Positions 13,411 to 63,844 are shown, numbered from the stretch's first letter. The stretch is 64,000 nucleotides of DNA from Candidatus Komeilibacteria bacterium (GCA_030688315.1 JAUYIT010000027.1:33135-97134); one strand, 5' to 3'. A program made the numbers and translations. The notes: generated from the sequence alone by a model not told the origin.

Positions 13411-13422
13411 CAGCGACGTATT

Positions 13423-22468: not shown

Positions 22469-23755
22469 TTATTCCGTCTTGGGTTCGATAAAAATGAAGC
22501 TCTTTAAGAACAACTGATAAGTGGTGTAAAAATTCATTTGCTGTTGGTTGCCGGTATCGTAAACCAAAACGTAAATACTGGAACCCACCGCCAGATAGGT
22601 ATTTAAGCCGTCGGGCGTTTGAATGGCCGGCAAGCCGCCTACCAGCACGCTTTTGAGAGCGGCGGCGTCAGCCGATTTGTTTTTATCCAAATACCAGTTT
22701 TTAGCCGAAAGACCCAAAGGATTTTCCTGAACTATCACTTCAATAAATTCGCCGGTGTTGGAAGTAAAAATCACTTCGCTGTTTTGGATGTTTAAAGACC
22801 GGGCCGGCCAGGGCACGGGATAAAAAACCGAATAATTATAACTGGGATTTTGGTAAATCCCAATCAGGCCGGAATCAACCAAGCGCCCATCGCCCTTGGG
22901 ATTGAAAAAATTCAAAATTTCCGAGGCGTCCACATAGCCGTCATTATCGGTATCGGCTTTGGCCGAATCGGTCTGAAAAATATTCTCTTCAATGTCGGTC
23001 AGCTGGTCGCCGTCAGAATCCTGACCTTTAGCCGGAGTTTGCGGAACGGTTGGCGTGCTTGGCAAATCCGTGCCGGGGTTTTCATCGGAAACTTCTTCGT
23101 TGGTCTGTTCTTCCAGCTGACTGGCGGGGAAAATGACTTCGGCCGTGGCCACGTAATCTCCCGCGGCCAATTTAAGCGTTCCCCAAACAGCATCAGCTTC
23201 TAAAGCAAAGGCCAGAAGATACCCTTTTTGCTCGGCCGTGGACGAATAAAGATAACTCTGCCCGCCCGGTTCGGGATTAGTTGGCAAAACTTCCATAAAA
23301 GGCCCGACTAAATTGCTTAAGGAATTAGGAAAAACCTGGTAAGTGCCGGCGTAAAGATTTAAGGCACTGCGGATATCGCCAATATCATTAAGGCGCTTGG
23401 CATCACGGGATGAGGCCGTGCTTAAAGTATCATTAGAGTTGGTATTGGCGTTATTATTGCTATTGTTGTTATCATTGCTATTGTCATTAACGTTTTCATT
23501 GGCATTAGTGTTAATAACCGGCAATTCCACAATCGGCATTGGCTCGGACTGTTTGTTTAAAAACCAAATCACGCCGGCAATAACGCCGCCTAAAGCCAAA
23601 AAAATAACAATACCCAACACCAGCCAGTTAAGGCGCTTGCCCTGCGGCGGCTGCATGGAATTTTGCCGAAACTGATCGGGCATGGTATGGATATCGCCGT
23701 CCGCTTCTTCCGCTGGCAGATCGGGGAGTTCAGAATTTTCTTTGGGTGTAAACAT
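22469..23755 (-). CDS. TM-anchored surface protein with pseudopilin-like core and thrombospondin-type-3 Ca-binding repeats (paralogue of 23780..24658)
   Basis: 428 aa. Cytoplasmic N-tail, one TM (WLVLGIVIFLALGGVIAGVIWFL), an Asn-rich linker, a segment SRDAKRLNDIGDIRSALNLYAGTYQVFP resembling the GspG/type IV pilin globular-domain start, DSDGDQLTD / DTDNDGYVDASE D-x-D-x-D-G repeats, and an NPKGDGRL motif. Confidence 0.65.
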   Translation of the reverse strand: MFTPKENSELPDLPAEEADGDIHTMPDQFRQNSMQPPQGKRLNWLVLGIVIFLALGGVIAGVIWFLNKQSEPMPIVELPVINTNANENVNDNSNDNNNSNNNANTNSNDTLSTASSRDAKRLNDIGDIRSALNLYAGTYQVFPNSLSNLVGPFMEVLPTNPEPGGQSYLYSSTAEQKGYLLAFALEADAVWGTLKLAAGDYVATAEVIFPASQLEEQTNEEVSDENPGTDLPSTPTVPQTPAKGQDSDGDQLTDIEENIFQTDSAKADTDNDGYVDASEILNFFNPKGDGRLVDSGLIGIYQNPSYNYSVFYPVPWPARSLNIQNSEVIFTSNTGEFIEVIVQENPLGLSAKNWYLDKNKSADAAALKSVLVGGLPAIQTPDGLNTYLAVGSSIYVLVYDTGNQQQMNFYTTYQLFLKSFIFIEPKTE

Positions 23756-23779: not shown

Positions 23780-24658
23780 TTAAAAATTAGCTTCCAATAA
23801 AGTGCCGGCCCCTTTGGGATTGTAGCCGCTGTTAACTTCAGCGCCGTCCAAATAACCGTCTCCGTCGGAATCAGGGTTTAAAGGATCCGTTAGGTATACC
23901 TTGACTTCCTCGCGATCCGATAACCCATCGTTGTCGCTATCGGGTTCCATGGGATTGGTGCCCAGATTATTTTCTTCCTGATCGCTTAAGCCGTCTTTAT
24001 CCGAATCCATGGCCGGCTCGGGCTGGTTGGAATTGGCATTGCTGTCCGCGGAATCTTCCGGACTGGGCAAAATCAAATTGTCATTGACGTTTTGATTATC
24101 GTTGGAATTCTGATTCTGATTATTATCAACGGTATCGTTAGCGTTAGCGTTATTATTGCCGAAATTAATAACATCATCCTGAAACTGGCGGTTGACCTCG
24201 GCCGGAGATAGACTGTTAATATTAAATTGAGGCAAATTTACGGCCGGATCGGCAAAAAACTTGGCATAAGCAAAATAGCCGCCCACTGCCAAAATAACGA
24301 TTAACACCGCCAAACCCACCCAAAAAAACTTTTTATTGCCGCCGGACTCATCTTCCAAATCATCCGGTAACTGCATTAAAGGTTCGGGCAAAACCGGATT
24401 AACCGGCGTATTAGCAACCCCGGACTGTTGCTGGGCATTTTGATTTAAGGAAACCGGTCTGGCGGCCTGATCAGTTTCGGCAAAAATATCCTCCATGCCC
24501 TGACCTTGAGGTGCTGAAGGCCCGCCTGCCGGCGAGGCAGGCGTAAAAGATCCGCCTTGCGGCGAAGCGGGCGCGCTTGGCTTTTGAGCCATTGATTCGC
24601 TTAAATTAATGCCGTCAACCAAGTTGGGTGCCGCGGGGTTGGGTTTTGGATCAAACAT
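23780..24658 (-). CDS. TM-anchored surface protein with thrombospondin-type-3 Ca-binding repeats (paralogue of 22469..23755)
   Basis: 292 aa. One TM (FFWVGLAVLIVILAVGGYFAYAKFF), an N/Q-rich linker, three DSD(K/N/G)DG(L/Y)xD repeats, and C-terminal NPKGAGTLLEANF. Confidence 0.65.
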   Translation of the reverse strand: MFDPKPNPAAPNLVDGINLSESMAQKPSAPASPQGGSFTPASPAGGPSAPQGQGMEDIFAETDQAARPVSLNQNAQQQSGVANTPVNPVLPEPLMQLPDDLEDESGGNKKFFWVGLAVLIVILAVGGYFAYAKFFADPAVNLPQFNINSLSPAEVNRQFQDDVINFGNNNANANDTVDNNQNQNSNDNQNVNDNLILPSPEDSADSNANSNQPEPAMDSDKDGLSDQEENNLGTNPMEPDSDNDGLSDREEVKVYLTDPLNPDSDGDGYLDGAEVNSGYNPKGAGTLLEANF

Positions 24659-24714: not shown

Positions 24715-27700
24715 TTAAGGAATGTAGACCTGGAAATCATCATACCAGCTAGTAGAACAATCACCCCAAACCGCCACGCCAAAAGTCCGGCCGTTTAAGG
24801 CATTGTCATTATCAGTTGCATTATGCCAATCAGCCACGGCCGGCATGGCCTCGCCATCCTGCCAGTCAATGTATTTAATGTTTGCCCTGTTGCCGCTGTG
24901 GCTTATTTTCATGGCTAGCCAGTACCAGGTTTCGGACGGCACTAATGACGGTTGGTTCTCAACAACTGGACTAAATTGATCTAAGACGCTCATAACTCCG
25001 TCAGTGCCCGAGTGCTCGTCCATGCGGTTGACTTTAACCAAACTCAAACGATGTTGATTGTTAATGTTAGGCCATAAAGCGTAAGCGGATTCCTGCCCGG
25101 CATTTTGGGCGTTGTAATCATAATTGCCTAAAATTAAAGTGTTGGGATTACCCTGTTTGATTTTAATTCTGGACACAATCGTCACGTTCTGGTTTTGATT
25201 TTGCACATCAAAAACCGGCGGCACCAAGGCCTTAAGAAACCATCTATCACTGCTACCACACTGCGGATCTCCGTCGCTCGGATTTGCGCCCTGCAAAGTA
25301 AAAGGGTTATTATCATCGTTTAACTGCACGATCGACCAGACGGCGGGTTCAAAATTGCCGTGCTCTCTGGCTAACCAACTTTCGCCCGTGGGCACGGAAT
25401 AAACTCCCGCGTCGTCAAAATTATCCAAAAAGATTCTTTGGCCCAAATCAAAGCCGGAACAATCAGCGCGGCAGTAATTTCCATTTCCGTTGTTAGGGCC
25501 ATCATCACAGGCCTCGCCTACTTCAATCACATCATTGCCGCATTCAGCACTGGCAACGCAAACATCGCCTTCACGATGATAACCATCATTACAATTAAAT
25601 GAACAGCCCCAACCACCTCTAACAGCGGAACAAACGGCTGAGCTATGAGCGGGTTGAGGACAACGATGACCGCACCTGCCGCAATGGTTGATGTCATAGG
25701 CAATGTTAGTTTCACAGCCGTTAGCCACACTGCCGCCATCAATACAGGCGTCATATCCATCTAAACAACGTAATAATTGACAGCTGTTAGCACAATAATT
25801 GTTTTGCGAAACACCGATTTGTCCATCGCATAATTCTTCCGGCTGTTTATACCCGTCGCCACAACGGCCATAATATGCACCGCCAGAATCACAACTGACC
25901 CCGCAGGTGTTGTTGTTGCAGCTGGGAGTACTGCCATCCTGGCAGCTCCAGCCATTGGCATTGCCATCGCATTGTTCGCCGTAAAATGACTGCACAATGT
26001 TATCACCGCACCAACCGCCGATATCGCGGCAACTGGCGCTGCAAGCGTATTGATTGTCTCGGTCACTACCGTTGATAACGCCGTTAGAAAAACCGTCAGC
26101 ACCGGCTTCGGCGGAAATATCGCATTGTTCAGCTGGGCTGATTTGATAGTCCCAATCAGCGCTGTTTAAAATCCCGTCGCCGCAATAACCGCCGCAACGC
26201 TGACCAATGGACAAATTATCCCAATCATCGCCGTAATTATCAGGGTTGACCCAGGTGCATTCGCCGAATTTGGAACCGACCGCTTCACAACCCAAATAAC
26301 GCGGCGTGTACCATCTGGCTCCGGCCGGACAGTAATTATTGCTCATGCCCGGTTCGCACTGCTCATTGCCGTTAACCACGCCGTCGCCGCAACGCGCGCC
26401 GATCGGCTGGGTATTGCAACCCAAAACGCCGGCCGTACTTAAACGAAAATGCGGATTAAACCGATTAGCTTGATCTTGATCGCTTAGCCAAGTGGCGGTG
26501 GTTTCCATTTTGGCGGCTAATAGATAATTGTTATTGCCGATGGTTTCATAAGAATAAAAATAGGAATCGGCATCGCAGGCAAAAGCGCCCCGGCTTTGGT
26601 TGGCATCAGGGTTCCAACAAGTTTGGCGGTCATAGCCGCAATTACCGCCCTGCGTTTGAATTGTTGCCTGATCAACATAAAAGGTGGCGGCGCCTTCGTG
26701 GGAACGGATAAAGATAAAATTATTACTGCCGTTAGCTCCGCCGCCAACAGCCGGATTGGTAACCAAACGGTTCTTGAGCAAAACCCAGCCGGTCACGTCA
26801 GGCGGGGTCAGCCATTCATTGCCGTAATCATTGCCGTCAAAGGTTAAATGAGCGCGGCCGGAAACAACATAAACCCAGGCACTTAGTTCATAAGTTGTGT
26901 TAGGTAATAAGCTGATTGGCTGAACAATGCCGGTTTGAGCGTTTCTGGACAAAATCCCGAGTGAAGCGCTGCCTTCTTTAACAAAACTCCTGTTGGTATT
27001 ATGCGAAACGCCAAGCCCCGCGCGCTCCAAAGTCAAACGCCAGCCGCTTTCATCGTTAAGACCGGGATCCCCGGCGGCAGCTGGGCCTGCCAGATCATTA
27101 GGATCTTCAAAGCCGGCATTAACCAGTTCCGGTTCCGTACAAACTACACACTTATTAAACTTATTAATCGGATCAACCGGCAAACTGGCGGACAATGCCG
27201 GAGCTAAGGTTTGGTTCCAAGAAGGCCACTTGCTGTTACTGCGGCCGCTTAAAAAGGAACCAGCGGTTAAAGCAGGCACGGCACCGTTGTGGCCGGCCTG
27301 ATAAGCTTCCACGGTTTGGGTAACCGCGGTCAAATCGGCCAACCGCTTAACGTCGCGCCGTAATTTTTCCTTTAAATCGGGATTATCAATGTTGCTGTTA
27401 AACTGCCATTTAGCCATCAGCCGTTTAACTATTTCCATGGTTTTAGGGCTGGCGTTTTGATTGTATGACAAAAGATAAATATTAGTGTAAGCGTTATTGA
27501 TTCTATTAACGCGATAACCAACATTAATCACCCTAAAATCATTGGCGTTAAAATTAGGAACAACAACATTTAAATCGCCGGCCAAATCATCAGCGTTTGC
27601 TTGTAAAGCATCTAGCTGTTTTTCAAAATCCGTCAAATCACTGGTTTGCAGGCCATTACTTAGGCCTTGGTTAAAATTATTAAAATCAGCGATAAAACGA

Positions 27701-30700
27701 TCGGCCTGTTGACCGGTAATTTGCAGGCGGTTCAGTTCGTTTAACAAATTCTGCAAATCGGTTTGGCCGTTAACCAAGCCCTGATAGCGCGTTAAATCGG
27801 CCGCCAAGTTTGCCAGCTGTGCTTCGTAAGCGTTAAGTTCTTGGGGGCTAACGCCCTCTTGGACCAGCGCCGCGCGATTGTAATCAGCGCGGGCTTGATT
27901 TAAATCCGCCTGCGCGCCGGCCAAATCCGCCGGCCTAAACCCTTCATTGGCAAAACGATTGGCTACAACATTAAAGTTCTGAAAATTTTGCTGGAAAGCG
28001 GCCACGGGCGGCGTACCGGGCGGCGCCACGGCGGCCAAAATATTATTGACGCTTAAATCAGCTAAAACATTTTTTAACCCTTGCCAAAGATTGGCCAGCC
28101 AGCCGTCAGCTTTGACGAAAACAGGATTATTATCGGAATTATAAGACAAACTGCCCTGCGGGACATTGGCCGCGGCCACGTAAACGGTGCGTCCATCTTG
28201 AATGGCTTCATAACCGTCCACCTCCGTGTTGGAGGGGTTACCCTGGACAGCGGCATTAATATTTTTTTGATACCAAGCCCGCGGATTAAGATGTAGATTA
28301 TTTTTATAAACTCTTAAGCCCAAAACATCGCCGGTGGTGGGCACGGGAATCAAGTATTCGCGGAGCAGATCGTCTTTGGCCGGATCATTATCAGAGCTGA
28401 TATCAAGGGGCTGGGGTTCAAACAAAGCCGGCAAATCGTCCATAGTTCCGGCGCCGCCGGCATCGCGGCAGTAGCTTAAAGAAAAGTTGTAAGTGGGATC
28501 AATAAATTTGTAATCTGGATTGAGATCTCCCGTGATGGGGTTCCAACGGTTTTCACAAATATCCACAATGGCTTTGGCTGATGCGGATAAAGCGGGTTTT
28601 TGATAAACAGCCGGAAAGACGGCGCTGGCAATAATATTTGACTGGCCGTTTTTATTTTGCGCCTTTACCACCATAAAGCCGGGTCCGCTTTGATCCAAAG
28701 CAGCCACGCTTTGATTGGAGGTTTGCCACTGCCAGTTCCATTCATAAACGCCGGCAATAGCGGCCAGTTGCTCGCCCGTTTGGCTAAAACCACTGGCTGT
28801 GTACTTTTTATCGCCATCATAAATTGTGTCAAATTTTTCAGCGTTTTCGCCTTCAACATTATTGTCCGTTTCATTATCAAAACTGGTGGTAAAGGTCCAA
28901 TCCTTTTGACCGGACTCCTGATCGGCCGCCACGGTTACAAAATCCAAATCGCAAACATCGGGGCCGGTTCGGAAAGAATAACTGAAATTGCCGGCCAGGG
29001 GCTGGCCGTTAACCGCTTTAACGCCGTTCTCGCCACCCACAACAGTTGCTCTCACGGTTGAAACTACCGGCAACGCTTGGGTTAAGGAAAAATACACCTG
29101 GCTTTGTCCGCCCGCGTGTTCTTCCAGCCATTGGCCCGCTACAGGACACCAATACGCAACCGCTTGCGCCCGGTTGAACAAGCTGTTCCAGAGGGAACTA
29201 AAAATTTTGCCGGCCAGATTATTAAGCCATTGGCCGATCAAGTTATCGGCTGACAGCCAATTGCCTGAATTTTGATGATAAACCACTTCTTCGCGGCAGC
29301 CAGCGGGCTGGCTGGCGGCCTCCACCTGATATTCCAACTGGAAATTATTTTGTTTAACCGTATCTTTATTTAGTAACTTATCAAAATCAACTTTAACCAT
29401 GGCGTTGCGGCAAACGCTTTGGGCTCCGTCCTGCGGCACAACACCGGTAATAGCCGGACCGTTTAAAATGTCGTTAACCCTAATTGAGGCCGTGCCGGGA
29501 GGAGCGTTGCCGATAATGGCGGCGATAACGGTTTCGCCCTCACCAATGCCCCGTGATTGAGCCCGGGAAGTATCGCCCTCGCTAAAATCAACCGTGGCAA
29601 TGTTGGCGTTGGCTGTGCGCCAATTTTCAATGGGATCAGACAATAACTCGCCTTCAGCCGAAACTGCGTAAGCCGACCATTCCTGCCAGGTGCCGATATT
29701 AATGGTCGCGCTTGCGGGCGTCACTTCAATGGCGGCCACTTCGCACCTGTTTTGACCCACGGTAAATGACCAAGAACAAGCGGCAGTGCCGGCATCCCAA
29801 ATCATCCCCTGCCCGCAACCGCGTTGGGCTAGTTCTTCTTCATCCGCCGTTTTAATGCCCTCGGCATTGCCGCGGATTTTGATTTCATAGCGGGTCTGTT
29901 GTTTCCAAAGGTTATTATTTTCTTGGGGCAATAAACTGATGATGGTTTTATCCTGATTAAAACTGATGTCGGTTAAAACCGCGCAACCCGCCTCGGGACA
30001 ATCGTTGCCATGTTCAACCACTATAAAATTGGCCGGGGTGATTAAGTCCTGATTTATACCGAGATTAAAGCGGACTTGGCCAAGCGCGTTTTGGCAAACA
30101 TTTTCACCGCTCGGGTGATGTTGGGTAATGGTCAGATAAATATCTTCGCCCTGACTGACTGTCAGCTTGCCATTGTTACCGGTGTTTTCCTCGCCCAAGG
30201 CCTGCGCCCTAATTTTGGTTTCGCCGATTTCTTTGGCCAGCGCGCTGTTTTGATGGTTATTACTTTGGCCGACCTCGGCCACGGTTTCGTTTTCAGATAG
30301 CCATGACCAACGCAGATCATTAGGTTCTTTAAGCAACTGGCAGGATTCTCGGTCAACTGTTTCGGCTGAATAATTCTGGCTTTCTTGCGGTTGCAAAATG
30401 GCAGTACCCGGAATAACCAGCACGGTGTTAAACTGACACAGCTCGTTCCCGCTTTGGGTTTTAAACTGCCAGCTTCTGGCGCCAATAAACTGTCCGCCGT
30501 CAACATTGGCCAAATTATTATTTAAACTGACCTCATACCAAGTGTTGGGCAAAAGATTTTGCTCTGACTCAAAGATCACGCCGCGCAAACCGTTACGGCC
30601 GCCGGCTTCATAATATATTCCCCCAGCCATAGTAACAGCCACGGTTTGATTGTTGCCCCGTTGCTTTAAAGTTAAGGCATCGGCCGCCAGCAAGCCATCG

Positions 30701-33700
30701 GTTATAATCGAGTTGAACTGCACCGCGATTTTGGCATTAAGGCAGGCGTTTTGGTAAGAAGGATAGGGCGAGGGGCTTTGCGGCTGAATGGAGCACGACT
30801 GGCTGAATAAAATGCCAAAATCGCGGGGCACAATTTCCACTTGCGCCGTGCCTTGTCCGCTCTGGCCCTCATCGTTGCTGGCTTGAGCCGTAATATTAAC
30901 CGGACTTTGCGTGATTGCCTTAGCCGTCATCAAACTTTGGTTAACGCGGGATTCCGTGTCAATTTCCGCCTGATTTGGATTGGAAGAATTCCATGACCAG
31001 CTAAATGTATCCGGACAAATATTGCAGTTTTCGGCGTTATAAGGATAACCGCTATATGTTACCTCATCATTTAAATACACCGGATTGTTGTTTCTGATCA
31101 ATCGCTGATTGGGGTTTACGCTGACAGCGTTAATTTGGCAAACTTCATTATTATCTCTAGTTTTAAAAAACCAAACATACGGCTCGGCCATGGCCAAATT
31201 TTCTTGCTCGCTTCTTAAATCACCTAAGGTAACTTGATACCAAGTTGAAGGTTGCAAAGCCGAAGACAAACTTAAAACAAAATATTCACCGCTGTTGCCT
31301 TGGCCGAATTCAAATTCGCCATCAATATTTTGAACTTGGGCGCAGTTCCCGGGCGTTTCACCGTTGCCGCATGACTTAACAACCACCGTTGAACCAAGAT
31401 CAAACGATGCGTTGTTCATGTCGGTATTAAAGGTGGCGGAAATTTGAGTATTAACAAAATTATTCAAACTGTTTTTAAGCGGTGTGGGTGAAGCTAGCCC
31501 TAATTGACACGATTGGCTTTCCACCACTTCGGGCACCACGCAGTTTTCACAAGTGGTAAACTGCCATTGATAATATGAATCGGGTGATTCTTCTTCTCCG
31601 CCTGCTCCGCCGGTCACTGAAAAATCCAAACTATTGCTTTGCAACTCGTTATTAATAACTACTTTAACCGGGCCGGAGCGGGCGCCCTCGGGCACGGGCA
31701 CGTTGTTAAAATGCTGGTTCTGATTATCGGGCCGGGCGTTTAAATTCTGCTCGCCCAGTTTTAAAGTTCCACCATTAAAATACTCGCCGGCCACTTCAAA
31801 GGTGGATCCAACTTGGCCTTCGCGCGGATATAAACTGCAAATGCCCGGTGCCAGATCGGCTTCGGCCTGATAATCAAAGGACTGGTCAGTGGTATCCTGC
31901 CGGCCGTCAGCTCTTTGCACCATAATGGTGCCATCAGCCGCGCCTTCAGGGACTTTAACAATAATATGATCGTCCTGCCAAAAACTGCTATCAGCGCGGC
32001 ACTCCACCGGAAAATCAAAAGTACCTTCAACATTATCAGTAAAAATAACTTTGCTTTGACCTTCCTGATATTGGCCGAAATCGGAACCGTAAATATTAAC
32101 GTACTGGCCAACGTTGCCGTTCTTAGGTTCAAAATCAACGATGTTGGGATAATTATTTTCCGGCAAAACCGTAATGGCCAAAGCGTTGCTATCTTGTCCG
32201 TCAATCCTGACCCTAACCGAAGTTTGACCCGGATTTAAATTAGGCAAATTTGCCGAAACAAAGGCGCGACCCTCTACCGCCCGCCACACCGGACCCGCGG
32301 CAGCAAGATTTTGCTCCGCCCGGCCAAAATAAACACTCTTTTCCTGATTGGGATCGTTAATGTTGCCAAACTGATAGCCGACCAAGGTAAAATTTGCGCC
32401 GGGCGGATTCTGGTCGGGCACCAACATGCAAATACCCGGACGTTCAATGTCATTGACCGAAAAATCAACCCTGTTGCTGGTTAAATTCTGGCTGGTGATC
32501 ACGCTTAATTGAGTATTGCCTAAATCCAATTCAATCGGCAATTCCAAAATAATTTGCGTATCGGTCCAGCTGGCCTGGCAAAATCTGGGCAAGCGACCCT
32601 CAACATCGCCGATAAAAATTTGGCCGGGAGTATTGCCAAAACCGCGGCCGCTAATGGTGACCCAGTTGCCTTTGGCGCCATTATCCGGGCTAACCGCCAT
32701 AATTCTGGGCGGTTGTTGGCACAAGCAGGAATCAACATTGCAAACATTGGAAGCGCAGATTTGATTGTCAGCGTCAGTACAGCGATTCTCGATAACTTCG
32801 CCGCAAGGGTCGCCTGCGCAGGCGCCGCAAGCACCACCGCAATCTACGCCGGTTTCTTCAAAGTTTTCGTCTTGAATATTATTAAAACAGTGCGCCGGCC
32901 TGATTAACACGCTAGCCCGCCCTAAGGCGGACTCATGGCCGGCCGCGTCATAAGCGCGGGTAGTTAGTTCAAAAGCTTGGGGCTGAAGATTGTTAGTGGG
33001 CCATTCCGTCTGCGCCAAAAATTCCAGGGGCGTATCTTGGCCCGCTTCATTGGTATTTAAAAAATTGCCGGCCACAAAAAAATCAACTGAAGTAAGCCCG
33101 CCGTCATCGGTGGCTTGAGCGAATAAATTATAAACTTCATCAAGCGAAAAAATCGCCCGGCCGGTTAAATCAAAATGCTGGCCGGCGCGGTTAACTGCTT
33201 CAGTAAAATCCACCGAGGGATTTTGGGTATCCACCAAACCGCCGACCCTGAATTCCCCCACGCAACTATTGCCATTACAGGTCACGGCCAGCCCGCCCAC
33301 GCTTCTTAAGGAAACACCGGCCTCGGATAAAACCGTGACGCGGTAAAGATTTAGGTCAGCGTTGTTTTCATCATAACCAAAGCAGAACAATCGCTCATTG
33401 GGTTCCGGACAATTGGTTTGCGGCGTAAATTTAACCCGTTGCTGATTATTAGGATCAATGGTCAAAGTTCCGGCTACTCTTTCAAACCCGCCCTGGCCGT
33501 TGGCGCGTTCAACTCTAATACCTTCCTGATTTGTTAATACATTATTTTCGTCGATTAAAGCGGGATTAATAACTTGGCTAAAGCTGATTTGAGGGACAAC
33601 ATTTCTGATTCTTTGCTGGCCACGGGGCAGAATGCTGGTCACCCTAAACTGACGTTGAAGATCGGGAATGTCGGGGTCACCCGGCCCGCCTGGCCCGCCA

Positions 33701-34086
33701 GGCACGCCGGTGGCGCTGCTTAAACGGCTGATTATAAAAGCGGTAATAGCGTAGGCCGATAAAATAACAGCCAGGCCAATCACGGCATTAGTCATGATTT
33801 TTTTGGCGTCGGCGATTTTGTCTTCTTCGCCGCCCGCCGTCATCCATAAAAAACCGGCGTAGATGATTAAACCCGTGGCAATCACGCCTAAAAACCCGAG
33901 AAAAATATTAATGATTAATGCGATGGTGTCCTTGAGTCCGCGCGTGCCTAAATTAACACTAGTCAAATCATTAACGCCGTAATTATCAATATTTTGCGCC
34001 AAAACCGCTGACGGGGCGATTACAACAACCGCGCTAATAAACAGCAGGAAGATAAGTATTAATTTGGTTTTGCGTTTTATAAACAT
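24715..34086 (-). CDS. giant (3123 aa) Cys-rich cell-surface protein: N-terminal VirB2/TrbC-like pilin module + Ig-like + IPT/TIG + coiled coil + CGDG...EQCD Cys repeats + C-terminal lectin/ConA-like domain
   Basis: Single uninterrupted ORF (ATG...TAA). Residues 1-120 carry a signal peptide and a two-helix hairpin (IINIFLGFLGVIATGLIIYAGFLWMTAGGEEDKIADAKKIMTNAVIGLAVILSAYAI). Several IPT/TIG-like segments follow (e.g. PRIMAVSPDNGAKGNWVTISGRGFG, PNIVDFEPKNGNVGQYVNIYGSDFG), then a long Q/N/L-rich coiled coil (residues ~1980-2130) and at least 8 CGDG(I/V)xxxxEQCD Cys-rich repeats (~2560-2870). The terminal ~250 aa are beta-rich and lectin-like. More than 150 Cys overall. Confidence 0.85.
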   Translation of the reverse strand: MFIKRKTKLILIFLLFISAVVVIAPSAVLAQNIDNYGVNDLTSVNLGTRGLKDTIALIINIFLGFLGVIATGLIIYAGFLWMTAGGEEDKIADAKKIMTNAVIGLAVILSAYAITAFIISRLSSATGVPGGPGGPGDPDIPDLQRQFRVTSILPRGQQRIRNVVPQISFSQVINPALIDENNVLTNQEGIRVERANGQGGFERVAGTLTIDPNNQQRVKFTPQTNCPEPNERLFCFGYDENNADLNLYRVTVLSEAGVSLRSVGGLAVTCNGNSCVGEFRVGGLVDTQNPSVDFTEAVNRAGQHFDLTGRAIFSLDEVYNLFAQATDDGGLTSVDFFVAGNFLNTNEAGQDTPLEFLAQTEWPTNNLQPQAFELTTRAYDAAGHESALGRASVLIRPAHCFNNIQDENFEETGVDCGGACGACAGDPCGEVIENRCTDADNQICASNVCNVDSCLCQQPPRIMAVSPDNGAKGNWVTISGRGFGNTPGQIFIGDVEGRLPRFCQASWTDTQIILELPIELDLGNTQLSVITSQNLTSNRVDFSVNDIERPGICMLVPDQNPPGANFTLVGYQFGNINDPNQEKSVYFGRAEQNLAAAGPVWRAVEGRAFVSANLPNLNPGQTSVRVRIDGQDSNALAITVLPENNYPNIVDFEPKNGNVGQYVNIYGSDFGQYQEGQSKVIFTDNVEGTFDFPVECRADSSFWQDDHIIVKVPEGAADGTIMVQRADGRQDTTDQSFDYQAEADLAPGICSLYPREGQVGSTFEVAGEYFNGGTLKLGEQNLNARPDNQNQHFNNVPVPEGARSGPVKVVINNELQSNSLDFSVTGGAGGEEESPDSYYQWQFTTCENCVVPEVVESQSCQLGLASPTPLKNSLNNFVNTQISATFNTDMNNASFDLGSTVVVKSCGNGETPGNCAQVQNIDGEFEFGQGNSGEYFVLSLSSALQPSTWYQVTLGDLRSEQENLAMAEPYVWFFKTRDNNEVCQINAVSVNPNQRLIRNNNPVYLNDEVTYSGYPYNAENCNICPDTFSWSWNSSNPNQAEIDTESRVNQSLMTAKAITQSPVNITAQASNDEGQSGQGTAQVEIVPRDFGILFSQSCSIQPQSPSPYPSYQNACLNAKIAVQFNSIITDGLLAADALTLKQRGNNQTVAVTMAGGIYYEAGGRNGLRGVIFESEQNLLPNTWYEVSLNNNLANVDGGQFIGARSWQFKTQSGNELCQFNTVLVIPGTAILQPQESQNYSAETVDRESCQLLKEPNDLRWSWLSENETVAEVGQSNNHQNSALAKEIGETKIRAQALGEENTGNNGKLTVSQGEDIYLTITQHHPSGENVCQNALGQVRFNLGINQDLITPANFIVVEHGNDCPEAGCAVLTDISFNQDKTIISLLPQENNNLWKQQTRYEIKIRGNAEGIKTADEEELAQRGCGQGMIWDAGTAACSWSFTVGQNRCEVAAIEVTPASATINIGTWQEWSAYAVSAEGELLSDPIENWRTANANIATVDFSEGDTSRAQSRGIGEGETVIAAIIGNAPPGTASIRVNDILNGPAITGVVPQDGAQSVCRNAMVKVDFDKLLNKDTVKQNNFQLEYQVEAASQPAGCREEVVYHQNSGNWLSADNLIGQWLNNLAGKIFSSLWNSLFNRAQAVAYWCPVAGQWLEEHAGGQSQVYFSLTQALPVVSTVRATVVGGENGVKAVNGQPLAGNFSYSFRTGPDVCDLDFVTVAADQESGQKDWTFTTSFDNETDNNVEGENAEKFDTIYDGDKKYTASGFSQTGEQLAAIAGVYEWNWQWQTSNQSVAALDQSGPGFMVVKAQNKNGQSNIIASAVFPAVYQKPALSASAKAIVDICENRWNPITGDLNPDYKFIDPTYNFSLSYCRDAGGAGTMDDLPALFEPQPLDISSDNDPAKDDLLREYLIPVPTTGDVLGLRVYKNNLHLNPRAWYQKNINAAVQGNPSNTEVDGYEAIQDGRTVYVAAANVPQGSLSYNSDNNPVFVKADGWLANLWQGLKNVLADLSVNNILAAVAPPGTPPVAAFQQNFQNFNVVANRFANEGFRPADLAGAQADLNQARADYNRAALVQEGVSPQELNAYEAQLANLAADLTRYQGLVNGQTDLQNLLNELNRLQITGQQADRFIADFNNFNQGLSNGLQTSDLTDFEKQLDALQANADDLAGDLNVVVPNFNANDFRVINVGYRVNRINNAYTNIYLLSYNQNASPKTMEIVKRLMAKWQFNSNIDNPDLKEKLRRDVKRLADLTAVTQTVEAYQAGHNGAVPALTAGSFLSGRSNSKWPSWNQTLAPALSASLPVDPINKFNKCVVCTEPELVNAGFEDPNDLAGPAAAGDPGLNDESGWRLTLERAGLGVSHNTNRSFVKEGSASLGILSRNAQTGIVQPISLLPNTTYELSAWVYVVSGRAHLTFDGNDYGNEWLTPPDVTGWVLLKNRLVTNPAVGGGANGSNNFIFIRSHEGAATFYVDQATIQTQGGNCGYDRQTCWNPDANQSRGAFACDADSYFYSYETIGNNNYLLAAKMETTATWLSDQDQANRFNPHFRLSTAGVLGCNTQPIGARCGDGVVNGNEQCEPGMSNNYCPAGARWYTPRYLGCEAVGSKFGECTWVNPDNYGDDWDNLSIGQRCGGYCGDGILNSADWDYQISPAEQCDISAEAGADGFSNGVINGSDRDNQYACSASCRDIGGWCGDNIVQSFYGEQCDGNANGWSCQDGSTPSCNNNTCGVSCDSGGAYYGRCGDGYKQPEELCDGQIGVSQNNYCANSCQLLRCLDGYDACIDGGSVANGCETNIAYDINHCGRCGHRCPQPAHSSAVCSAVRGGWGCSFNCNDGYHREGDVCVASAECGNDVIEVGEACDDGPNNGNGNYCRADCSGFDLGQRIFLDNFDDAGVYSVPTGESWLAREHGNFEPAVWSIVQLNDDNNPFTLQGANPSDGDPQCGSSDRWFLKALVPPVFDVQNQNQNVTIVSRIKIKQGNPNTLILGNYDYNAQNAGQESAYALWPNINNQHRLSLVKVNRMDEHSGTDGVMSVLDQFSPVVENQPSLVPSETWYWLAMKISHSGNRANIKYIDWQDGEAMPAVADWHNATDNDNALNGRTFGVAVWGDCSTSWYDDFQVYIP
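33712..34086 (-). other. VirB2/TrbC-like pilin module (signal peptide + two hydrophobic helices with GGEEDKIADAKK loop) at the N-terminus of the giant protein
   Basis: Near-identical to residues 1-125 of the 592-aa paralogue and similar to residues 140-213 of the 327-aa protein at 56932..57915. Confidence 0.6.
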
Positions 34087-34096
34087 TTATCTTTTT

Positions 34097-34142
34097 GTCA
34101 TTGCTTCGTCGCCCGCCGATTCGGCGGGCTCCTGGCAATGAC
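34097..34142. repeat. short repeat-family copy (gtcattgc-ttcgtcg-cccgccgattcggcgggc-tcctg-gcaatgac) between the two pilin-module paralogues
   Basis: Shares the gtcattgc/gcaatgac terminal inverted repeat with copies at 3520 and 53368 and the gcccgccgattcggcgggc hairpin with 20478 and 53440. It may act as the terminator of the 592-aa gene. Confidence 0.7.
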
Positions 34143-34143
34143 G

Positions 34144-35922
34144 TTACTGGCAGTTAGGACTAACCTGCCCATCATCGCACGGGCCAACGGCCGGATTCAA
34201 ACAATTTTGATACATGTCCTGGATGCCGGCGGTCAGGCGCGGATTATAAACCGTTAACGGATTCAAATAAGGCGAGTAAGTCCTGATTACAGCCGTTGTT
34301 GCCCGATCAACATTTTGCTTGTAAACATTAAAACCGCCTTCCGGATAGCAAGTTAGGTCATCAGGAAATTCCGCCCCGTCGCAGGCGAATTTATAAACGG
34401 TATAGTTATCGCTGTTAACGGTGGAAGAGCGCAACAGTTCGCTAAAGCGCGCGTTGATCCGGCTGTTTTTGGGCACAGTGTCGGAACCCTGCTCCGGAGT
34501 GATACTTCTAACGGTTGGGGGCGTTAAATCCAGTTCATCGGTGGTATTAAAAGAAGAAGTGTAATTATCGTCGGGCTGGCCTTGAGCCGCGCCGTTAGCG
34601 TTGCCGTCCAAAGAATTGCCCGCGGCATCGGTAATACCCGATAACGGATCAAGCGTTTCGTTGTTGTTGACAATGGCGGCCTTAGCCAAAATAGCCAGCA
34701 GTTCGCTGCCCGGCAAACATTTGGGCGTTACCCCGCAGGAATTTTGTTCAACCGGCTGGCCGTTAACCTCACATACGGCAACCGGAATAAATTCCACGGT
34801 TCTAAAACGGTTGCTGATCATAAACTCGCCCGCTAAATATTGAACCGCTTCCTGTTCATTTTCATAACTGATTAAAATATTATTAAACGGTTCCTGGGCA
34901 TTGCCAGTCGCCACGCCAGTGGCGCTAAGCAAATTAACGGCCTCATTAAAATTGATTTGGAAAATAGCGTTTTTAGGTACGTTTGCACCGGCGGCCGGTT
35001 CCACGCTTTCCACTTGAGGCGGGGTTAAATCCGATAAATTGGAAACCTGGAACGACCAGTTAAAACCGCCGCTAAAGAAAGCTCTGTTGCCGCCAACTTT
35101 GGCAATCTGGTCGCTTAAATTAACCGTGTAATCGCTATTACCGTCCCCCGAACCCAGTAAAGGATTGGGATTAAAAACAAAATCACGGTTATTGCGGGTT
35201 AAGGCGATTACCTGGTTGGCCGCCAAAAAAGAATTGTCCGCGCTTCTGTTAATAATCTTGACTGACGGCACAACGGAATTGTCGCGCAAAGTAAATTCTT
35301 TAAGGTTGCCGCAAATTATTTCTTGAGGCAGGCCGGCGCATTCTTGCGGACGATTTTGAGTGTTAATGATGGTGGCCGTATCCATGGCTTCCTTAAAACT
35401 GACCATCAGCAGTACGTTGCGCGGAACGTCTCTGGCGCCCGGTTCCGGATAAACGTCGCGTAAAATTCCCCCGCCCAAAGCGCCGATGTTAACGTCAAAA
35501 GACCCTCTGCCCCCGCTGGGATCTTCGCCTCCCCGAGTGGCTTCATCCAGCCGGCTGATAATAAAACGGGCAATTAAATATGAAGACATGATAATAGCCA
35601 GGCCAATGACGGCGTTGCGGATGATTTTTTTGGCGTCGGCGATTTTGTCTTCTTCGCCGCCTGAAGTCATCCATAACCAGCCGGCATAGATAATGAGGCC
35701 CGTGGCAATCACCCCCAAAAACCCGAGAAATATATTAATGACCAAGGCGATAGTATCCTTAAGTTGGCGCGTGCCCAAATTGACCGAATCAAGATCATTA
35801 ATACCAAAATCGTCAGCGCTTTGCGCCAGTGCCAAAGCCGGTAAAACAAAAACAGCCACAATAAAGATACTCATCAATAAAGTAGCTGTTTTAAAGTTTA
35901 AGTTAAAAACCCTTAAAAGCAT
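34144..35922 (-). CDS. 592-aa surface protein: N-terminal VirB2/TrbC-like pilin module + Ig-like (SbsA/Big-type) domains, Cys-rich C-terminus; paralogue of the giant protein N-terminus
   Basis: Residues 40-125 (LKDTIALVINIFLGFLGVIATGLIIYAGWLWMTSGGEEDKIADAKKIIRNAVIGLAIIMSSY) are about 85% identical to the giant protein. The remainder is beta-rich and ends CLNPAVGPCDDGQVSPNCQ. Confidence 0.8.
   Translation of the reverse strand: MLLRVFNLNFKTATLLMSIFIVAVFVLPALALAQSADDFGINDLDSVNLGTRQLKDTIALVINIFLGFLGVIATGLIIYAGWLWMTSGGEEDKIADAKKIIRNAVIGLAIIMSSYLIARFIISRLDEATRGGEDPSGGRGSFDVNIGALGGGILRDVYPEPGARDVPRNVLLMVSFKEAMDTATIINTQNRPQECAGLPQEIICGNLKEFTLRDNSVVPSVKIINRSADNSFLAANQVIALTRNNRDFVFNPNPLLGSGDGNSDYTVNLSDQIAKVGGNRAFFSGGFNWSFQVSNLSDLTPPQVESVEPAAGANVPKNAIFQINFNEAVNLLSATGVATGNAQEPFNNILISYENEQEAVQYLAGEFMISNRFRTVEFIPVAVCEVNGQPVEQNSCGVTPKCLPGSELLAILAKAAIVNNNETLDPLSGITDAAGNSLDGNANGAAQGQPDDNYTSSFNTTDELDLTPPTVRSITPEQGSDTVPKNSRINARFSELLRSSTVNSDNYTVYKFACDGAEFPDDLTCYPEGGFNVYKQNVDRATTAVIRTYSPYLNPLTVYNPRLTAGIQDMYQNCLNPAVGPCDDGQVSPNCQ
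35548..35922 (-). other. VirB2/TrbC-like pilin module of the 592-aa paralogue
   Basis: See 33712..34086. Confidence 0.6.
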
Positions 35923-38159: not shown

Positions 38160-38801
38160 TTAAGGCAAAATATTAATCGGAGTTTTAAATAAAGTAAATT
38201 TGTTGAAAGGAAATGCCCGCAACAGCGCCTTGCCTTTAATGTTAGCGGTGGTAATGGGTCCGATGCGTCGGGAATCCAAACTATTGGCGCGGTTATCGCC
38301 TACCACATAATACTGCTCGTCGGTTAATAAAACCCGGCTTTCTTCATTAACCTGATTTTGAGTTAGGTAACCGGATTCATCAATTACCTGCCCTTGAGGG
38401 AACTCATTATTATATATAAAAATCTTGCCGTCTTTTAGCTCCACGGTTTCGGCAGGCAAACCGATGATTCTTTTGATGTAGTAAACGTTGGGTGAAAGGG
38501 GCGGATGAAAAATAACCACGTCGCCCCGTTGCGGCGTTTTAAAACGGTAGCTGATTTCGTCAACAATCAAATATTCACCGTCATGAAAATTGGGCACCAT
38601 GGAATCGCCTTCCACTATAAACGGCTGAACCACAAACATTCTAACGGGGATAATGATGGCCAAAGAAAAAACAATGATTTTAACGATTTCAAAAAAATAT
38701 TCCTTAAAACCGTGGCCCGAAGAACTTGGCTCTAAATTGGGTTCTTGACCCAAGGTAGTTTGTTGATCGTCCGTTTCGCCTCTTAAATCAATAATGTTCA
38801 T
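38160..38801 (-). CDS. lepB: signal peptidase I
   Basis: Catalytic Ser box GDSMVPNF, Lys box YIKRIIGLPAE, GDNRANSLDSR box. The track ORF extends to 39011 across the tRNA-Val gene (the GQLAQLVRALH..WFESS artefact); trimmed to the ATG at 38801. Confidence 0.88.
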   Translation of the reverse strand: MNIIDLRGETDDQQTTLGQEPNLEPSSSGHGFKEYFFEIVKIIVFSLAIIIPVRMFVVQPFIVEGDSMVPNFHDGEYLIVDEISYRFKTPQRGDVVIFHPPLSPNVYYIKRIIGLPAETVELKDGKIFIYNNEFPQGQVIDESGYLTQNQVNEESRVLLTDEQYYVVGDNRANSLDSRRIGPITTANIKGKALLRAFPFNKFTLFKTPINILP

Positions 38802-38865
38802 TAAAATATTTATGGTTGAATTGTACTTAATGTAACAGATAAGCCGGGCTAAAGCAAATTTAAAC

Positions 38866-38942
38866 TGGTGGACAATGCTGGATTCGAACCAGCGACCTTT
38901 GCAATGTGAATGCAACGCTCTAACCAGCTGAGCTAATTGTCC
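38866..38942 (-). tRNA. tRNA-Val (anticodon CAC)
   Basis: Reverse complement gives GGACAAT-TA-GCTC-AGCTGGTTA-GAGC-G-TTGCA-TTCACAT-TGCAA-AGGTC-GCTGG-TTCGAAT-CCAGC-ATTGTCC-A-CCA. Confidence 0.85.
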
Positions 38943-39073
38943 ATTTACACAAAAATACCTTATTTTTTGAAAAATTAAGGTAATAATAGCACTTAAAAAG
39001 CTAAAAATCAAGCCCGTAGGAAAGCCGGCTTTTGATTGACTGAAAACCTTATTTTTATTATAATTGGCTTACT

Positions 39074-56154: not shown

Positions 56155-56826
56155 TTACTGATCTCGGCAAGAAGCAGTACTAATATGATAGTGGTTACTA
56201 TTCTCCAATGCATGATAGCCTACATATCTTGCACACTGACTGATAGCTCTTTCAAAATATTGAAAATTTTCTTCATCACCAAAATCAACCGCGTATGACT
56301 TACCATCATTGACATCTCCTCCGTAATGGCATGAGTTCCAAAGATGGTCGCAATTTGCCGGCTTGTTGTTCTGAACATGACAGGCGCCCAAATTACCAAT
56401 ATAATCGGAATCGCTGATTGAGGAAATTCTGCCAATTACTACCGGCGGACTCCCTTCACGGCTAAGTTGTCTTTCAAATTCATTAAATTTTGGCCTTAAA
56501 CAATTTAAAAGATTTATTAATCCCTGGGAAGCATCAGATAGTTGCGCCTGAATACCGTCATCAAAGTGCCAACCGCCCGTAACACCCGCCTCATCAGCTC
56601 CTCCAAAATTTCTCTCCATACATGTTTTAGGCCCAATTGGAGGGTTAGCTACATAACAAATTTTATTACCCGGCAACCAGGTTACATTGTTGTTTGGGTT
56701 AGGAGAAGGACAAATACCTGATTTGCTAAAATTACCCATAACATCTTTGGTACAGATCATATCTTTAAATTTTGAACCTATATCTCCTGTAAAGGAGCTT
56801 AAGGCCAATCCCCCGACTTTCGCCAC
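56155..56826 (-). CDS. Cys-rich protein with possible LAS-type (M15/M23-like) zinc peptidoglycan-hydrolase motifs; in frame with the upstream 327-aa ORF across a single TAA
   Basis: 223 aa with 12 Cys. H-x6-D in CHYGGDVND and HxH in NHYHIS. GTG start at 56826 (first ATG at 56760). No signal peptide of its own. A strong hairpin terminator (aacagggtcaa...ttgaccctgtt) lies 3' of it. Confidence 0.4.
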   Translation of the reverse strand: MAKVGGLALSSFTGDIGSKFKDMICTKDVMGNFSKSGICPSPNPNNNVTWLPGNKICYVANPPIGPKTCMERNFGGADEAGVTGGWHFDDGIQAQLSDASQGLINLLNCLRPKFNEFERQLSREGSPPVVIGRISSISDSDYIGNLGACHVQNNKPANCDHLWNSCHYGGDVNDGKSYAVDFGDEENFQYFERAISQCARYVGYHALENSNHYHISTASCRDQ

Positions 56827-56931
56827 ACCATTATAATCAAAGCAATCATCTATCGTGGAACAATCAACATCAATTAACGCGCAAGTATTACCAATAATCT
56901 CATGTTTAAAGCTTGTTGAAAAAGTGCATAT

Positions 56932-57915: not shown

Positions 57916-57934
57916 AAGACGACTTAATTATATC

Positions 57935-58615
57935 TTACTTTAGCGCCTTTTCCAACTGCTCTAGCGTTATTTCCTGATTAAACCTCTGGTTATTAACAAA
58001 CAAATAAGGCGTGCCGTCTAAACGGAGGCCCTGGCCTTCCTGAAAATCTTCCATAATTAAAGGCAGAGTTTGCTGATTATCATAACACTGGCTGAATTTA
58101 GCCAGATCCAATTTTAAAGCCGAGGCGACTTGGGTATATAAATTTGAACCCAACTGGTCCTGATTGGCGTAAAGGTAATCATGGAATTCCCAGAATTTAT
58201 TTTGAACTTGGGCGCAACGGGCGGCAATGGCCGCGCGCTGGCTTTGCTGATAATCGGGATTGGGATAATCTTTCCAAATCAATAACACATCGGCGGGATG
58301 ATTTTGTAACAGTTGGCCCAAAACTTGTTCCGCGTCCGCGCAATGCGGACACTGAAAATCGCTATAAATAACCAGCTGGTTTTTGGCGGTTGTTTGGCCT
58401 AAAGCCGGGTCGGTGGCTCTTAACACCGGCGCGGTTAACAAGGGTTGAGTTACTTGCTGACTGACATTATTTAACGACTCCAAATATTCTTGATCATCTT
58501 TTAAAACTTTGGCGCCATAATAGTAACGAGTTACAATCAAAATCGTAAAAACAAGCAACAGCCCCAAGGCGAGGTAAACTAAGCGGTTGACTTGTTTGGG
58601 GTTAAGGTCAGACAT
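57935..58615 (-). CDS. membrane-anchored DsbA-family thiol:disulfide oxidoreductase (second copy, inside the T4SS-like operon)
   Basis: 226 aa. TM anchor, active site FQCPHC, DsbA-like C-terminal cis-Pro region (DGTPYLFVNNQ). Confidence 0.8.
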   Translation of the reverse strand: MSDLNPKQVNRLVYLALGLLLVFTILIVTRYYYGAKVLKDDQEYLESLNNVSQQVTQPLLTAPVLRATDPALGQTTAKNQLVIYSDFQCPHCADAEQVLGQLLQNHPADVLLIWKDYPNPDYQQSQRAAIAARCAQVQNKFWEFHDYLYANQDQLGSNLYTQVASALKLDLAKFSQCYDNQQTLPLIMEDFQEGQGLRLDGTPYLFVNNQRFNQEITLEQLEKALK

Positions 58616-58617
58616 GA

Positions 58618-59865: not shown

Positions 59866-59879
59866 ATTAATATGGATAA

Positions 59880-60698: not shown

Positions 60699-60716
60699 AC
60701 TATTTAATCAACTTTA

Positions 60717-61292: not shown

Positions 61293-61302
61293 ATAATTTT
61301 AA

Positions 61303-63153: not shown

Positions 63154-63162
63154 GTTGATTTG

Positions 63163-63843: not shown

Positions 63844-63844
63844 A

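Follow-up and report, generated by a model that had tools for sequence, protein, structure and literature searches.

Patescibacteria account for a large share of bacterial diversity, and their mode of attachment is known mainly from a few cultivated Saccharibacteria. It has been reported that most Patescibacteria encode VirB2-like pilins and pilin arrays of a type IV secretion system (T4SS), the pilins being treated as small proteins and no adhesins being reported (PMC12102498). The T4SS and its VirB2-like pilins are essential for epibiotic growth in S. epibionticum (PMC10633639), and T4SS-pilin-domain proteins are strongly expressed in parasitism (PMC10936435). For large cysteine (Cys)-rich extracellular proteins from candidate phyla radiation (CPR) bacteria a role in attachment has been proposed (Anantharaman et al., 2016; PMC4736985). 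In this work we analyzed a 64,000-nt stretch of DNA from a Candidatus Komeilibacteria bacterium (GCA_030688315.1, JAUYIT010000027.1:33135-97134; hereafter the window) and a 9.4-kb gene within it (24715..34086) encoding a giant protein of 3,123 amino acids (aa), which carries a T4SS-type pilin anchor at its N-terminus. This gene, its neighbors in a conserved four-gene cassette, the T4SS cluster and the two DsbA genes discussed below all lie on the minus strand. We lean, by a little, toward reading the giant as a membrane-anchored, disulfide-stabilized adhesive fiber, exported by Sec and binding to partner cells. The gene takes up about 1% of the genome, and it and three partners keep a fixed length, order and position in very many lineages, which points to core surface biology.

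The giant open reading frame (ORF) is real and intact. It starts with ATG and is uninterrupted, as a preliminary description of the window had claimed; the second- and third-longest ORFs in the window have 693 and 687 aa, and the random expectation of 3,123 stop-free codons is ~1e-65 (stop frequency 3/64). NCBI holds an identical protein (P0001), encoded by a 101-kb contig that is the sole one with the exact sequence; its label is 'MAG: Ig-like domain-containing protein [Candidatus Komeilibacteria bacterium]'. A 3,032-aa orthologue (P0002), ~54-57.7% identical and collinear end to end, is intact on contigs of two independent samples. Because of the identical NCBI protein and the intact P0002 in both samples, the ORF is not an assembly artefact. 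One could still argue for an assembly chimera, or for a decaying gene free of stops by chance, since the source is a metagenome-assembled genome (MAG) and the exact sequence stands on one contig. We give this explanation practically no credence: in addition to the chance estimate and the collinear orthologue, hundreds of orthologues keep the length and domain order and 83 of the 84 Cys are kept, and for practical purposes it is already refuted. Promoter and terminator scans gave signals at or below the shuffle expectation.

On sequence comparison the giant is a member of a large, length-conserved Patescibacteria family and no single-genome oddity. There are at least 276 full-length homologues, nearly all of 2.9-3.8 kaa and with the domain order PF18895, Big_5, TIG, with or without DUF4215. 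With a profile of the alpha/beta core described below, 4,365 representatives of clusters at 50% identity were collected at E<=1e-3, and still 1,631 when the cutoff was E<=1e-30; in these relatives the core is found at about residues 1600-2300 of ~3,000-3,600-aa proteins. Database labels such as 'Ig-like domain-containing protein', 'IPT/TIG domain-containing protein' and 'cysteine-rich repeat protein' mask this one orthologous family. When 119 full-length homologues were compared, aa 1-1250, 1550-1975 and 2200-2320 of the giant were conserved in nearly all of them, and aa 1250-1550, 1976-2199, 2320-2500 and 2900-3123 were variable. The deposited sequence with its generic annotation, the existence of large Cys-rich CPR proteins and the abundance of PF18895 proteins were known beforehand. 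The literature that we searched contains no description of the ~3-kaa orthologous family, its alpha/beta core, the cassette beside ftsA/ftsZ or an anchor-restricted gene conversion.

The gene order was compared in the window and at the loci of P0002 (two samples), P0021, P0047, P0093, P0085 (Uhrbacteria-labelled) and P0097. The constant order is lepB - hisS - (rpsU) - yqeY - a ~600-650-aa PF18895+Big_5 protein - the giant - TSP3 membrane protein(s) - a ~330-470-aa membrane protein - ybeY - (dgkA) - ftsA - ftsZ - nrdR. The flanking genes are orthologous, with 27-66% identity (tblastn, seven loci), and the upstream paralogue of the giant is among them in all fetched loci; a 4-nt overlap of the upstream gene with the giant gene occurs in three genomes. 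In the window the 592-aa upstream paralogue (34144..35922) consists of a signal peptide, the same PF18895 anchor (32.9 bits), two Big_5 domains (81.7 bits) and a Cys-rich tail. On the other side of the giant gene are two single-pass membrane proteins. The first, of 292 aa (23780..24658), carries bacterial TSP3 repeats of the Ca-binding type (PF18884, 68.4 bits; transmembrane segment read from the sequence) and is syntenic and orthologous in all loci. The second, of 428 aa (22469..23755), has an N-rich linker, an RDAKR...YP...LPxxP motif and TSP3-like DxDxD repeats, and gave weak EF-hand matches only; its C-terminal domain (aa 243-423) is kept at 27-57% identity just upstream of ybeY in all loci. 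At one locus (L009, 10001-18341) the anchor and stalk form a 1,865-aa protein of their own, and the alpha/beta core (C-terminal half and the preceding hairpin) is carried by a distinct secreted protein of 596 aa with a signal peptide; two collagen-repeat proteins of 308 and 275 aa, whose N-termini are nearly identical, are encoded between the split halves. This natural split argues that anchor+stalk and core+head are separable modules. A single-segment search for related loci found three close ones, two of them in MAGs labelled Gammaproteobacteria. The family members at these two loci (L006 and L007, 'uncultured Gammaproteobacteria') are 36-39% identical to the core, and the label is probably a binning or taxonomy error because the neighborhood is of the Patescibacteria type (yqeY, PF18895 paralogue).

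The place of the cassette bears on an alternative in which the giant would be a core envelope scaffold, for example a strut across the wall, a spacing or S-layer-like element or a marker of the division or budding site, and no partner-cell adhesin. The synteny beside ybeY-dgkA-ftsA-ftsZ-nrdR is invariant and inheritance looks vertical, at least 1,600 clusters show the same length and architecture, the S-layer proteins SbsB, SbsC, Sap and EA1 are among the best structural matches, and the Ca-binding TSP3 partners recall Ca-dependent envelope lattices. However, the S-layer matches amount to generic Ig-domain similarity, and gene-order conservation in reduced genomes is by itself no proof of a division link. 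Moreover, the distal third of the protein is swapped for ligand-binding modules (VWA, LamG, lectins, CBM), which is the signature of receptor binding and not of a lattice; the distal modules of orthologues are VWA (PF00092), Laminin_G_3 (PF13385), FG-GAP/VCBS (PF01839), C-type lectin (PF00059), malectin (PF11721) and CarboxypepD_reg. A scaffold role is unlikely in our judgment. Since conserved proximal modules combined with swappable distal ligand-binding modules are the signature of a receptor-binding fiber, adhesion to partner cells or polymers would be the most likely role, and the layout of conserved stalk and variable head offers a testable predictor of partner specificity.

The N-terminus of the giant resembles a signal peptide by hydropathy and sequence reading (aa 1-30; 33997..34086), with a basic n-region (KRKTK), a hydrophobic core and a putative cleavage site between AVLA and Q. 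It is followed by a VirB2/TrbC-type pilin hairpin (aa 31-125; 33712..33996), recognized by PF18895, by hydropathy and by alignment with the two other PF18895 proteins in the window. The PF18895 (T4SS_pilin) match covers aa 48-117 with 31.7 bits against a cutoff of 26.6. Hydrophobic segments are found at aa 3-33, 50-84 and 96-123, and the helices at ~50-84 and 96-123 are bridged by a conserved charged loop, LWMTAGGEEDKIADAKK / TAGGEEDKIADAKK; the C-terminus of the protein is predicted to be outside the cell. The classical TrbC/VirB2 model PF04956 did not reach its threshold (14 bits vs 27.9), the pilin-like conjugal protein model NF045849 stayed under its cutoff of 40 with 25.9 bits, and a PDB search with the anchor sequence gave no meaningful match.

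The Patescibacteria T4SS pilins (PMC12102498, PMC10633639) are among the closest described systems. They share with the giant the N-terminal domain and the phylum, and tandem paralogous 'pilin' genes and a T4SS cluster are likewise present in the window. The described pilins, however, are small and mostly encoded beside virB4, whereas in the giant PF18895 makes up the first 4% of 3,123 aa and also heads the 592-aa protein; giant fusions are not discussed in the survey of these systems (PMC12102498). At least evolutionarily, the VirB2-type anchor ties the giant to the relaxase-less T4SS, a system essential for epibiotic growth.

The anchors of the giant and of the 592-aa paralogue form a pair. 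Their N-terminal ~125 aa are 74-78% identical and the ectodomains only ~30%, and the anchor-coding DNA forms a repeat (33725-34001 vs 35552-35828; 278 nt, 78.8% identical) with an identical run of >50 nt. Within-pair anchor identity varies among loci: 81% at the aa and 91% at the nt level in L001, 74% (aa) in the window, 70% (aa) and 77% (nt) in L009, 56% (aa) in L008 and 41-44% (aa) in L003 and L004. In the last two, orthologous anchors are closer to each other than paralogous ones, and no homogenization is seen there. The restriction of high pair identity to the anchors and the contrast with L003 and L004 indicate that the two anchors have been homogenized by recurrent gene conversion limited to this part of the genes. 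Such homogenization would fit a need for matching anchors, without proving it. In the window the 592-aa gene and the giant gene are 57 nt apart, and a very stable bipartite hairpin (34095..34142, minus strand) fills this spacer, with a minimum free energy of -32 kcal/mol (z = -8.05; 0/200 shuffles fold as well) and no U-tract. It is absent at the orthologous loci, where a gap of 12 nt or an overlap of 4 nt takes its place, and it may act in processing, stability or stoichiometry.

A T4SS cluster of the Patescibacteria type is found 22 kb from the giant gene (56155..63906). It encodes a TrsD-like ORF of 247 aa (63163..63906), a VirB4 ATPase of 616 aa (61303..63153; P-loop_TraG 98.7 bits, weak TraC/CagE matches), two membrane proteins (59880..61292), a beta-propeller-like protein of 415 aa (58618..59865), a membrane DsbA (57935..58615; DsbA-like Thioredoxin_4 101.7 bits), a 327-aa PF18895 pilin protein with Cys-rich N- and C-terminal extensions (56932..57915; 42.9 bits) and a Cys-rich 223-aa protein (56155..56826; no family match). 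The composition agrees with the system of Quinonero-Coronel et al. (PMC12102498), and the DsbA embedded in the cluster suggests that pilus-associated proteins need disulfide formation. Between radA and this cluster, a small island (54812-55957, minus strand) carries a Bro-N protein of 176 aa and two ORFs of 87 and 111 aa in a toxin-antitoxin-like layout, at a lowered GC content of 0.39-0.40; it may be a mobile-element remnant.

These genes give substance to the possibility that the giant is a subunit or tip adhesin of a T4SS pilus. Its N-terminal domain would then be a working VirB2-type pilin. The VirB4/TrsD machine at 56-64 kb would pull the giant from the membrane and incorporate it, along with the ~600-aa paralogue and the Cys-rich 327-aa pilin, into a pilus; the 3,000-aa ectodomain would be displayed externally or at the tip, with a role like that of VirB5 in Gram-negative systems. 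PF18895 is above threshold in all three proteins, and the window holds a complete T4SS cluster that includes a DsbA and a Cys-rich pilin. The anchor loop shows strong conservation between lineages, exceeding that of the ectodomain, and repeated homogenization of the two anchors is what one expects if they pack against each other. In addition, neither a PrgB-type adhesin nor a VirB5 has been reported for the T4SS of Patescibacteria even though its pilins are essential (PMC12102498, PMC10633639). On the other side, in none of the loci examined does the cassette adjoin virB4: the distance is 22 kb in the window, and no T4SS gene lies within +/-10 kb at six other loci. The anchor of the giant is only 26% identical to the pilin of the T4SS cluster and gives no more than the PF04956 score cited above. 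Judging from the structures of F- and T-pili, a 3,000-aa extension is also sterically hard to place in a helical VirB2 polymer unless the giant is a rare or terminal subunit. We regard incorporation into a T4SS pilus as a possibility, though on the unlikely side.

Beyond the anchor, a Gly/Pro-rich linker identified by sequence reading (aa 126-147, TGVPGGPGGPGDPDIP...; 33646..33711) leads into a proximal Ig-like region (aa 148-395; 32902..33645). This region gave a weak Big_7 match (PF17957, 20 bits, under the cutoff of 24.1) and is conserved in 114/119 homologues; Big_7 is precomputed in many orthologues. A ten-cysteine knot follows (aa 396-458; 32713..32901), defined by Cys positions, with 10 Cys in aa 400-456 (...GVDCGGACGACAGDPCGEV...CLCQQ); it has no Pfam or NCBIfam match, and the region is kept in about 115/119 homologues. 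Four IPT/TIG-like domains (aa 459-845; 31552..32712) come next, with a PF01833 score of 56.7 bits against a cutoff of 20.9. Hidden Markov model (HMM) matches fall in three stretches of aa 460-860, and motif and sequence reading give four units starting at ~460, 551, 647 and 747. The stalk (aa 846-1843; 28558..31551) is made of four [Big_5 + Ig-like] super-repeats, for which PF13205 Big_5 scores 100.4 bits over the whole giant, above threshold, with further segment matches. The boundary motif ...F.T...C(Q/E/D)xxxVxV recurs at aa 983, 1217, 1448 and 1712. Repeat boundaries were assigned by motif and HMM; the repeats are too diverged for self-BLASTP of the giant, which detected none within the protein at E<=1e-3. 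In an AlphaFold2 (AF2) model of aa 1540-2340 built from a 17-sequence alignment (A1), with a mean predicted local distance difference test (pLDDT) score of 68, the Ig-like fold is modelled at pLDDT 80-92, and Foldseek against PDB returned Ig-array matches only. The outline given in the preliminary description (a pilin-like anchor, an Ig-like region and further Ig-like repeats, a Cys-dense knot and several IPT/TIG-like domains) is thus borne out by the HMM scores, the Cys count, the two hydrophobic helices behind a signal-peptide-like segment and the modelled fold.

The distal end of the stalk is followed by a conserved alpha/beta core in two halves, aa 1844-1975 (28162..28557) and aa 2200-2316 (27139..27489), the second defined by the invariant columns of alignment A1 and by AF2. 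The N-terminal half carries the motifs CENxWP, NFSxxYCRD, IGxRIxxN..HL.P..WY and VDGYxAxxDGRTxYV. The C-terminal half carries YTNIYxxSYN, KLxRDxKRLxD, YPxLxxGTF, WPSW and LPVDPxN, then CxxC; it is conserved in 105-114/119 homologues and modelled with pLDDT 73-94 over aa 2200-2270. Between the two lies a lineage-specific insertion of 224 aa (aa 1976-2199; 27490..28161), recognized by homologue comparison and AF2. It is rich in N, A, L and Q, all-helical in the AF2 model (pLDDT 35-79) and common only to P0002. AF2 assembles one alpha/beta domain (pLDDT 80-94) from residues on both sides of the insertion, and residues ~1975 and ~2200 are contiguous in 115/119 homologues, which makes the Q/N/L-rich stretch an insertion in a conserved domain. 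The ~150-aa Q/N/L-rich coiled coil described earlier is thus correct as a helical, Q/N-rich stretch, and has to be revised to ~224 aa and to an insertion in place of a separate linker.

The fold of the core is possibly Mog1/PsbP/LpqN-like, a match that is weak and uninformative on the ligand; a PDB search with the core profile gave no meaningful match and no sequence relative. With at least 1,600 clusters and no PDB relative, the unannotated core is a good structure target. Two other assignments were tried. The RDxKRxxD...YP...LPxDPxN motif was a lead to a type IV pilin or type II secretion system (T2SS) pseudopilin-like head, for which no pilin/PulG-type model or fold was found. An HLSP motif was a lead to a GAIN/MAIN autoproteolytic module (bioRxiv 10.64898/2026.05.12.724683); the orientation is opposite, the motif is not invariant and there is no structural match.

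The core raises an alternative in which the giant is a scavenging or attack device. An LpqN/PsbP-like core and a carbohydrate-binding module (CBM)-like module next to it would bind or extract lipids or glycans of the host envelope instead of just adhering, much as proposed for giant proteins of Omnitrophota with a predatory role. The CBM match, though below threshold, points this way; Patescibacteria lack lipid and nucleotide synthesis (PMC10633639), and a part in predation has been proposed for giant genes (bioRxiv 10.1101/2023.11.21.568195). Set against this, the fold match is a weak one, PDB contains no sequence relative of the core, and no catalytic domain was detected across the 3,123 aa at Pfam or NCBIfam thresholds. 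We consider such a device very improbable. The giant genes of Omnitrophota (West-Roberts et al., 2023; bioRxiv 10.1101/2023.11.21.568195) are comparable in that they encode very large surface proteins of ultra-small, host-dependent bacteria near secretion or pilus genes. They differ in being far larger, in having predicted cell-wall-degrading domains, whereas no enzymatic domain was found in the giant, and in being preceded by T2SS/Tad-like systems.

The remaining C-terminal part forms a head of three modules. The first is a CBM_4_9-like beta-sandwich (aa 2317-2483; 26638..27138), common only to P0002, for which PF02018 scores 22.8 bits, under the cutoff of 25.9; its PDB matches to CBMs are weak (2zez, E 0.05; 2xom, E 0.5). 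The second is a Cys-rich region (aa 2484-2880; 25447..26637), delimited by repeat motifs and Cys counts, with 37 Cys and five CGDG/CGND...(E/D)xCD repeats at aa 2566, 2635, 2693, 2742 and 2849. The repeats are under threshold for both DUF4215 (PF13948, 9 bits vs 27) and TIGR02232 (13.7 vs 20.8), each matching four stretches, and PF13948 is precomputed in orthologues of the giant. The region resembles DUF4215/TIGR02232, a likeness at the level of sequence that does not establish membership for the giant itself. The third module is an orphan beta-rich domain (aa 2881-3123; 24718..25446), common only to P0002 at 65% identity, with a beta-rich tendency only and no Pfam, NCBIfam or PDB match (E<=10). 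A homologue search with the C-terminal 244 aa returned nothing, the parent protein included, and so shows little beyond a lack of close relatives. The AF2 model of aa 2310-3123 was unusable (pLDDT 31; 2-sequence alignment) because only one homologue shares the head modules. Of the earlier statements about this part of the protein, the count of at least eight CGDG repeats has to be lowered to five, and the lectin/ConA-like terminal domain finds no support in the family and structure searches or in the AF2 model. A C-terminus diversified by a diversity-generating retroelement was also considered, and in the window self-BLASTN found no repeat at the 3' end and the scanned ORFs contain no reverse transcriptase domain. 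Likewise, there is no Pfam match for RTX repeats with a type I secretion system (T1SS) or for LPXTG anchoring, and the protein ends in ...SWYDDFQVYIP.

The giant contains 84 Cys (2.7%), an even count, concentrated in aa 400-456 (10) and aa 2484-2880 (37); more than 150 had been estimated at first. In P0002, 83 of the 84 are conserved, the head region losing one Cys only, and such retention at 57.7% overall identity argues for structural disulfides. Two membrane DsbA paralogues, both noted previously, were confirmed: the one in the T4SS cluster (57935..58615) and a 248-aa membrane DsbA-like oxidoreductase at 107..853 (Thioredoxin_4 103.8 bits, DSBA 67.5 bits). The earlier connection between these enzymes and the disulfides of the giant is reasonable despite the wrong Cys count. 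The Cys-rich extracellular proteins of Peribacteria (Anantharaman et al., 2016; PMC4736985) are similar in being large CPR proteins with signal peptides, a proposed attachment role and one disulfide-forming enzyme. Those proteins were described from a single class and have an average of 1,655 aa and up to several % Cys, and no pilin-type anchor, cassette or core module was reported for them; the giant has 2.7% Cys over its whole length, with two regions of concentration.

These features can be assembled into a model of the adhesive fiber that we favor. After removal of the signal peptide, the VirB2/TrbC-type hairpin would fix the N-terminus in the cytoplasmic membrane, its short charged loop on the inner side and the C-terminus on the outer. 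The Gly/Pro linker would then carry a rod of about 14 beta-sandwich domains (Ig-like, the 10-Cys knot, four TIG, four [Big_5 + Ig]), which may reach ~60-80 nm from the cell, as estimated from typical Ig-domain sizes. At the distal end would stand the family-wide alpha/beta module, possibly Mog1/PsbP/LpqN-like and split here by the 224-aa helical insertion, and beyond it a lineage-specific, disulfide-locked head composed of the CBM-like sandwich, five DUF4215-like repeats and the orphan beta-rich domain. The head would be the ligand-binding end and vary with lineage, the anchor, stalk and core being conserved. The giant probably co-assembles at the membrane with the ~600-aa paralogue of the same anchor and with the two TSP3-repeat membrane proteins, and the membrane DsbA enzymes would form its ~42 presumed disulfides. 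Topology, length, co-assembly and adhesion to a partner cell are what we infer from these data. As to the preliminary description, its core reading of a giant, modular, disulfide-rich, anchored protein stands, and it had missed the family, the cassette, the T4SS type of the anchor with its cluster and the insertion in the core. Its candidate host- or partner-cell adhesin is retained as a candidate on the strength of the HMM architecture, the 83/84 Cys and the two DsbA genes, adhesion being the conjectural part.

Several observations count against this model. Adhesion is suggested solely by the architecture and the variable distal end. The head domains are unassignable, with CBM_4_9 and DUF4215/TIGR02232 below threshold, the C-terminal domain an orphan and the AF2 model failed. 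The strict place of the cassette beside ybeY-ftsA-ftsZ and the fixed length are more typical of a core envelope component than of an adhesin that sets host range. Finally, the anchor loop (LWMTAGG...AK..I.NA.IGL) is kept beyond the need of a passive anchor, and the anchors of orthologous giants are 41-58% identical vs ~27-30% overall in distant orthologues, which is a hint of an interaction with a machine.

Adhesins with a similar layout are known from other bacteria. In modular type IV pilins such as PilB and PilC of Streptococcus sanguinis, the pilin fold serves at the N-terminus for assembly or anchoring, and adhesive vWA or lectin domains are grafted C-terminal to it. These belong to an unrelated pilin class (type IV, no VirB2/TrbC), and their extensions have a few hundred residues as compared with 3,000. 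Long-rod adhesins (invasin, InvD, intimin and antigen I/II appeared as structural matches) also use a tandem beta-sandwich rod to lift a distal binding module far from the cell. Unlike these, the giant has no C-terminal T1SS signal, RTX repeats, LPXTG motif (C-terminus ...DDFQVYIP) or beta-barrel. It is anchored N-terminally by a VirB2-type hairpin in a monoderm-like cell, and its family is core and syntenic, not accessory.

A broader proposal would join the anchor, the T4SS and the core. It holds that the VirB2 pilin fold was turned into the assembly module of a dedicated host-contact organelle, universally conserved in Patescibacteria: a T4SS-like, relaxase-less machine would extract the pair with gene-converted anchors and co-polymerize it, the giant would form the tip fiber, its swappable head would set partner specificity, and the LpqN/PsbP-like core would take up host material, e.g., lipids. 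We find this doubtful in its entirety. If true, it would provide the adhesin that is 'missing' from the Patescibacteria T4SS and account for the essential role of the system and its pilins in epibiotic growth.

Other features of the window may be mentioned briefly. An intergenic element of ~100 nt occurs twice, at 3498-3633 (fusA/rpsG) and 53368-53471 (recG/radA), with ~80% identity; the first copy is an imperfect palindrome, and the element has no Rfam match at the gathering threshold. A tRNA-Val(CAC) gene (38866-38942, minus strand) overlaps the 5' end of a called 283-aa signal-peptidase ORF (38160..39011, TTG start). The real lepB start lies downstream of the tRNA, since orthologues have ~190-213 aa and the Pfam match begins at aa 108. 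ComEC is encoded by two adjacent ORFs (12526-14847, minus strand), one of 474 aa for the Competence/DUF4131 membrane part and one of 294 aa for the metallo-beta-lactamase part, and together with DprA (44048-45136) it shows that natural-competence genes are present.

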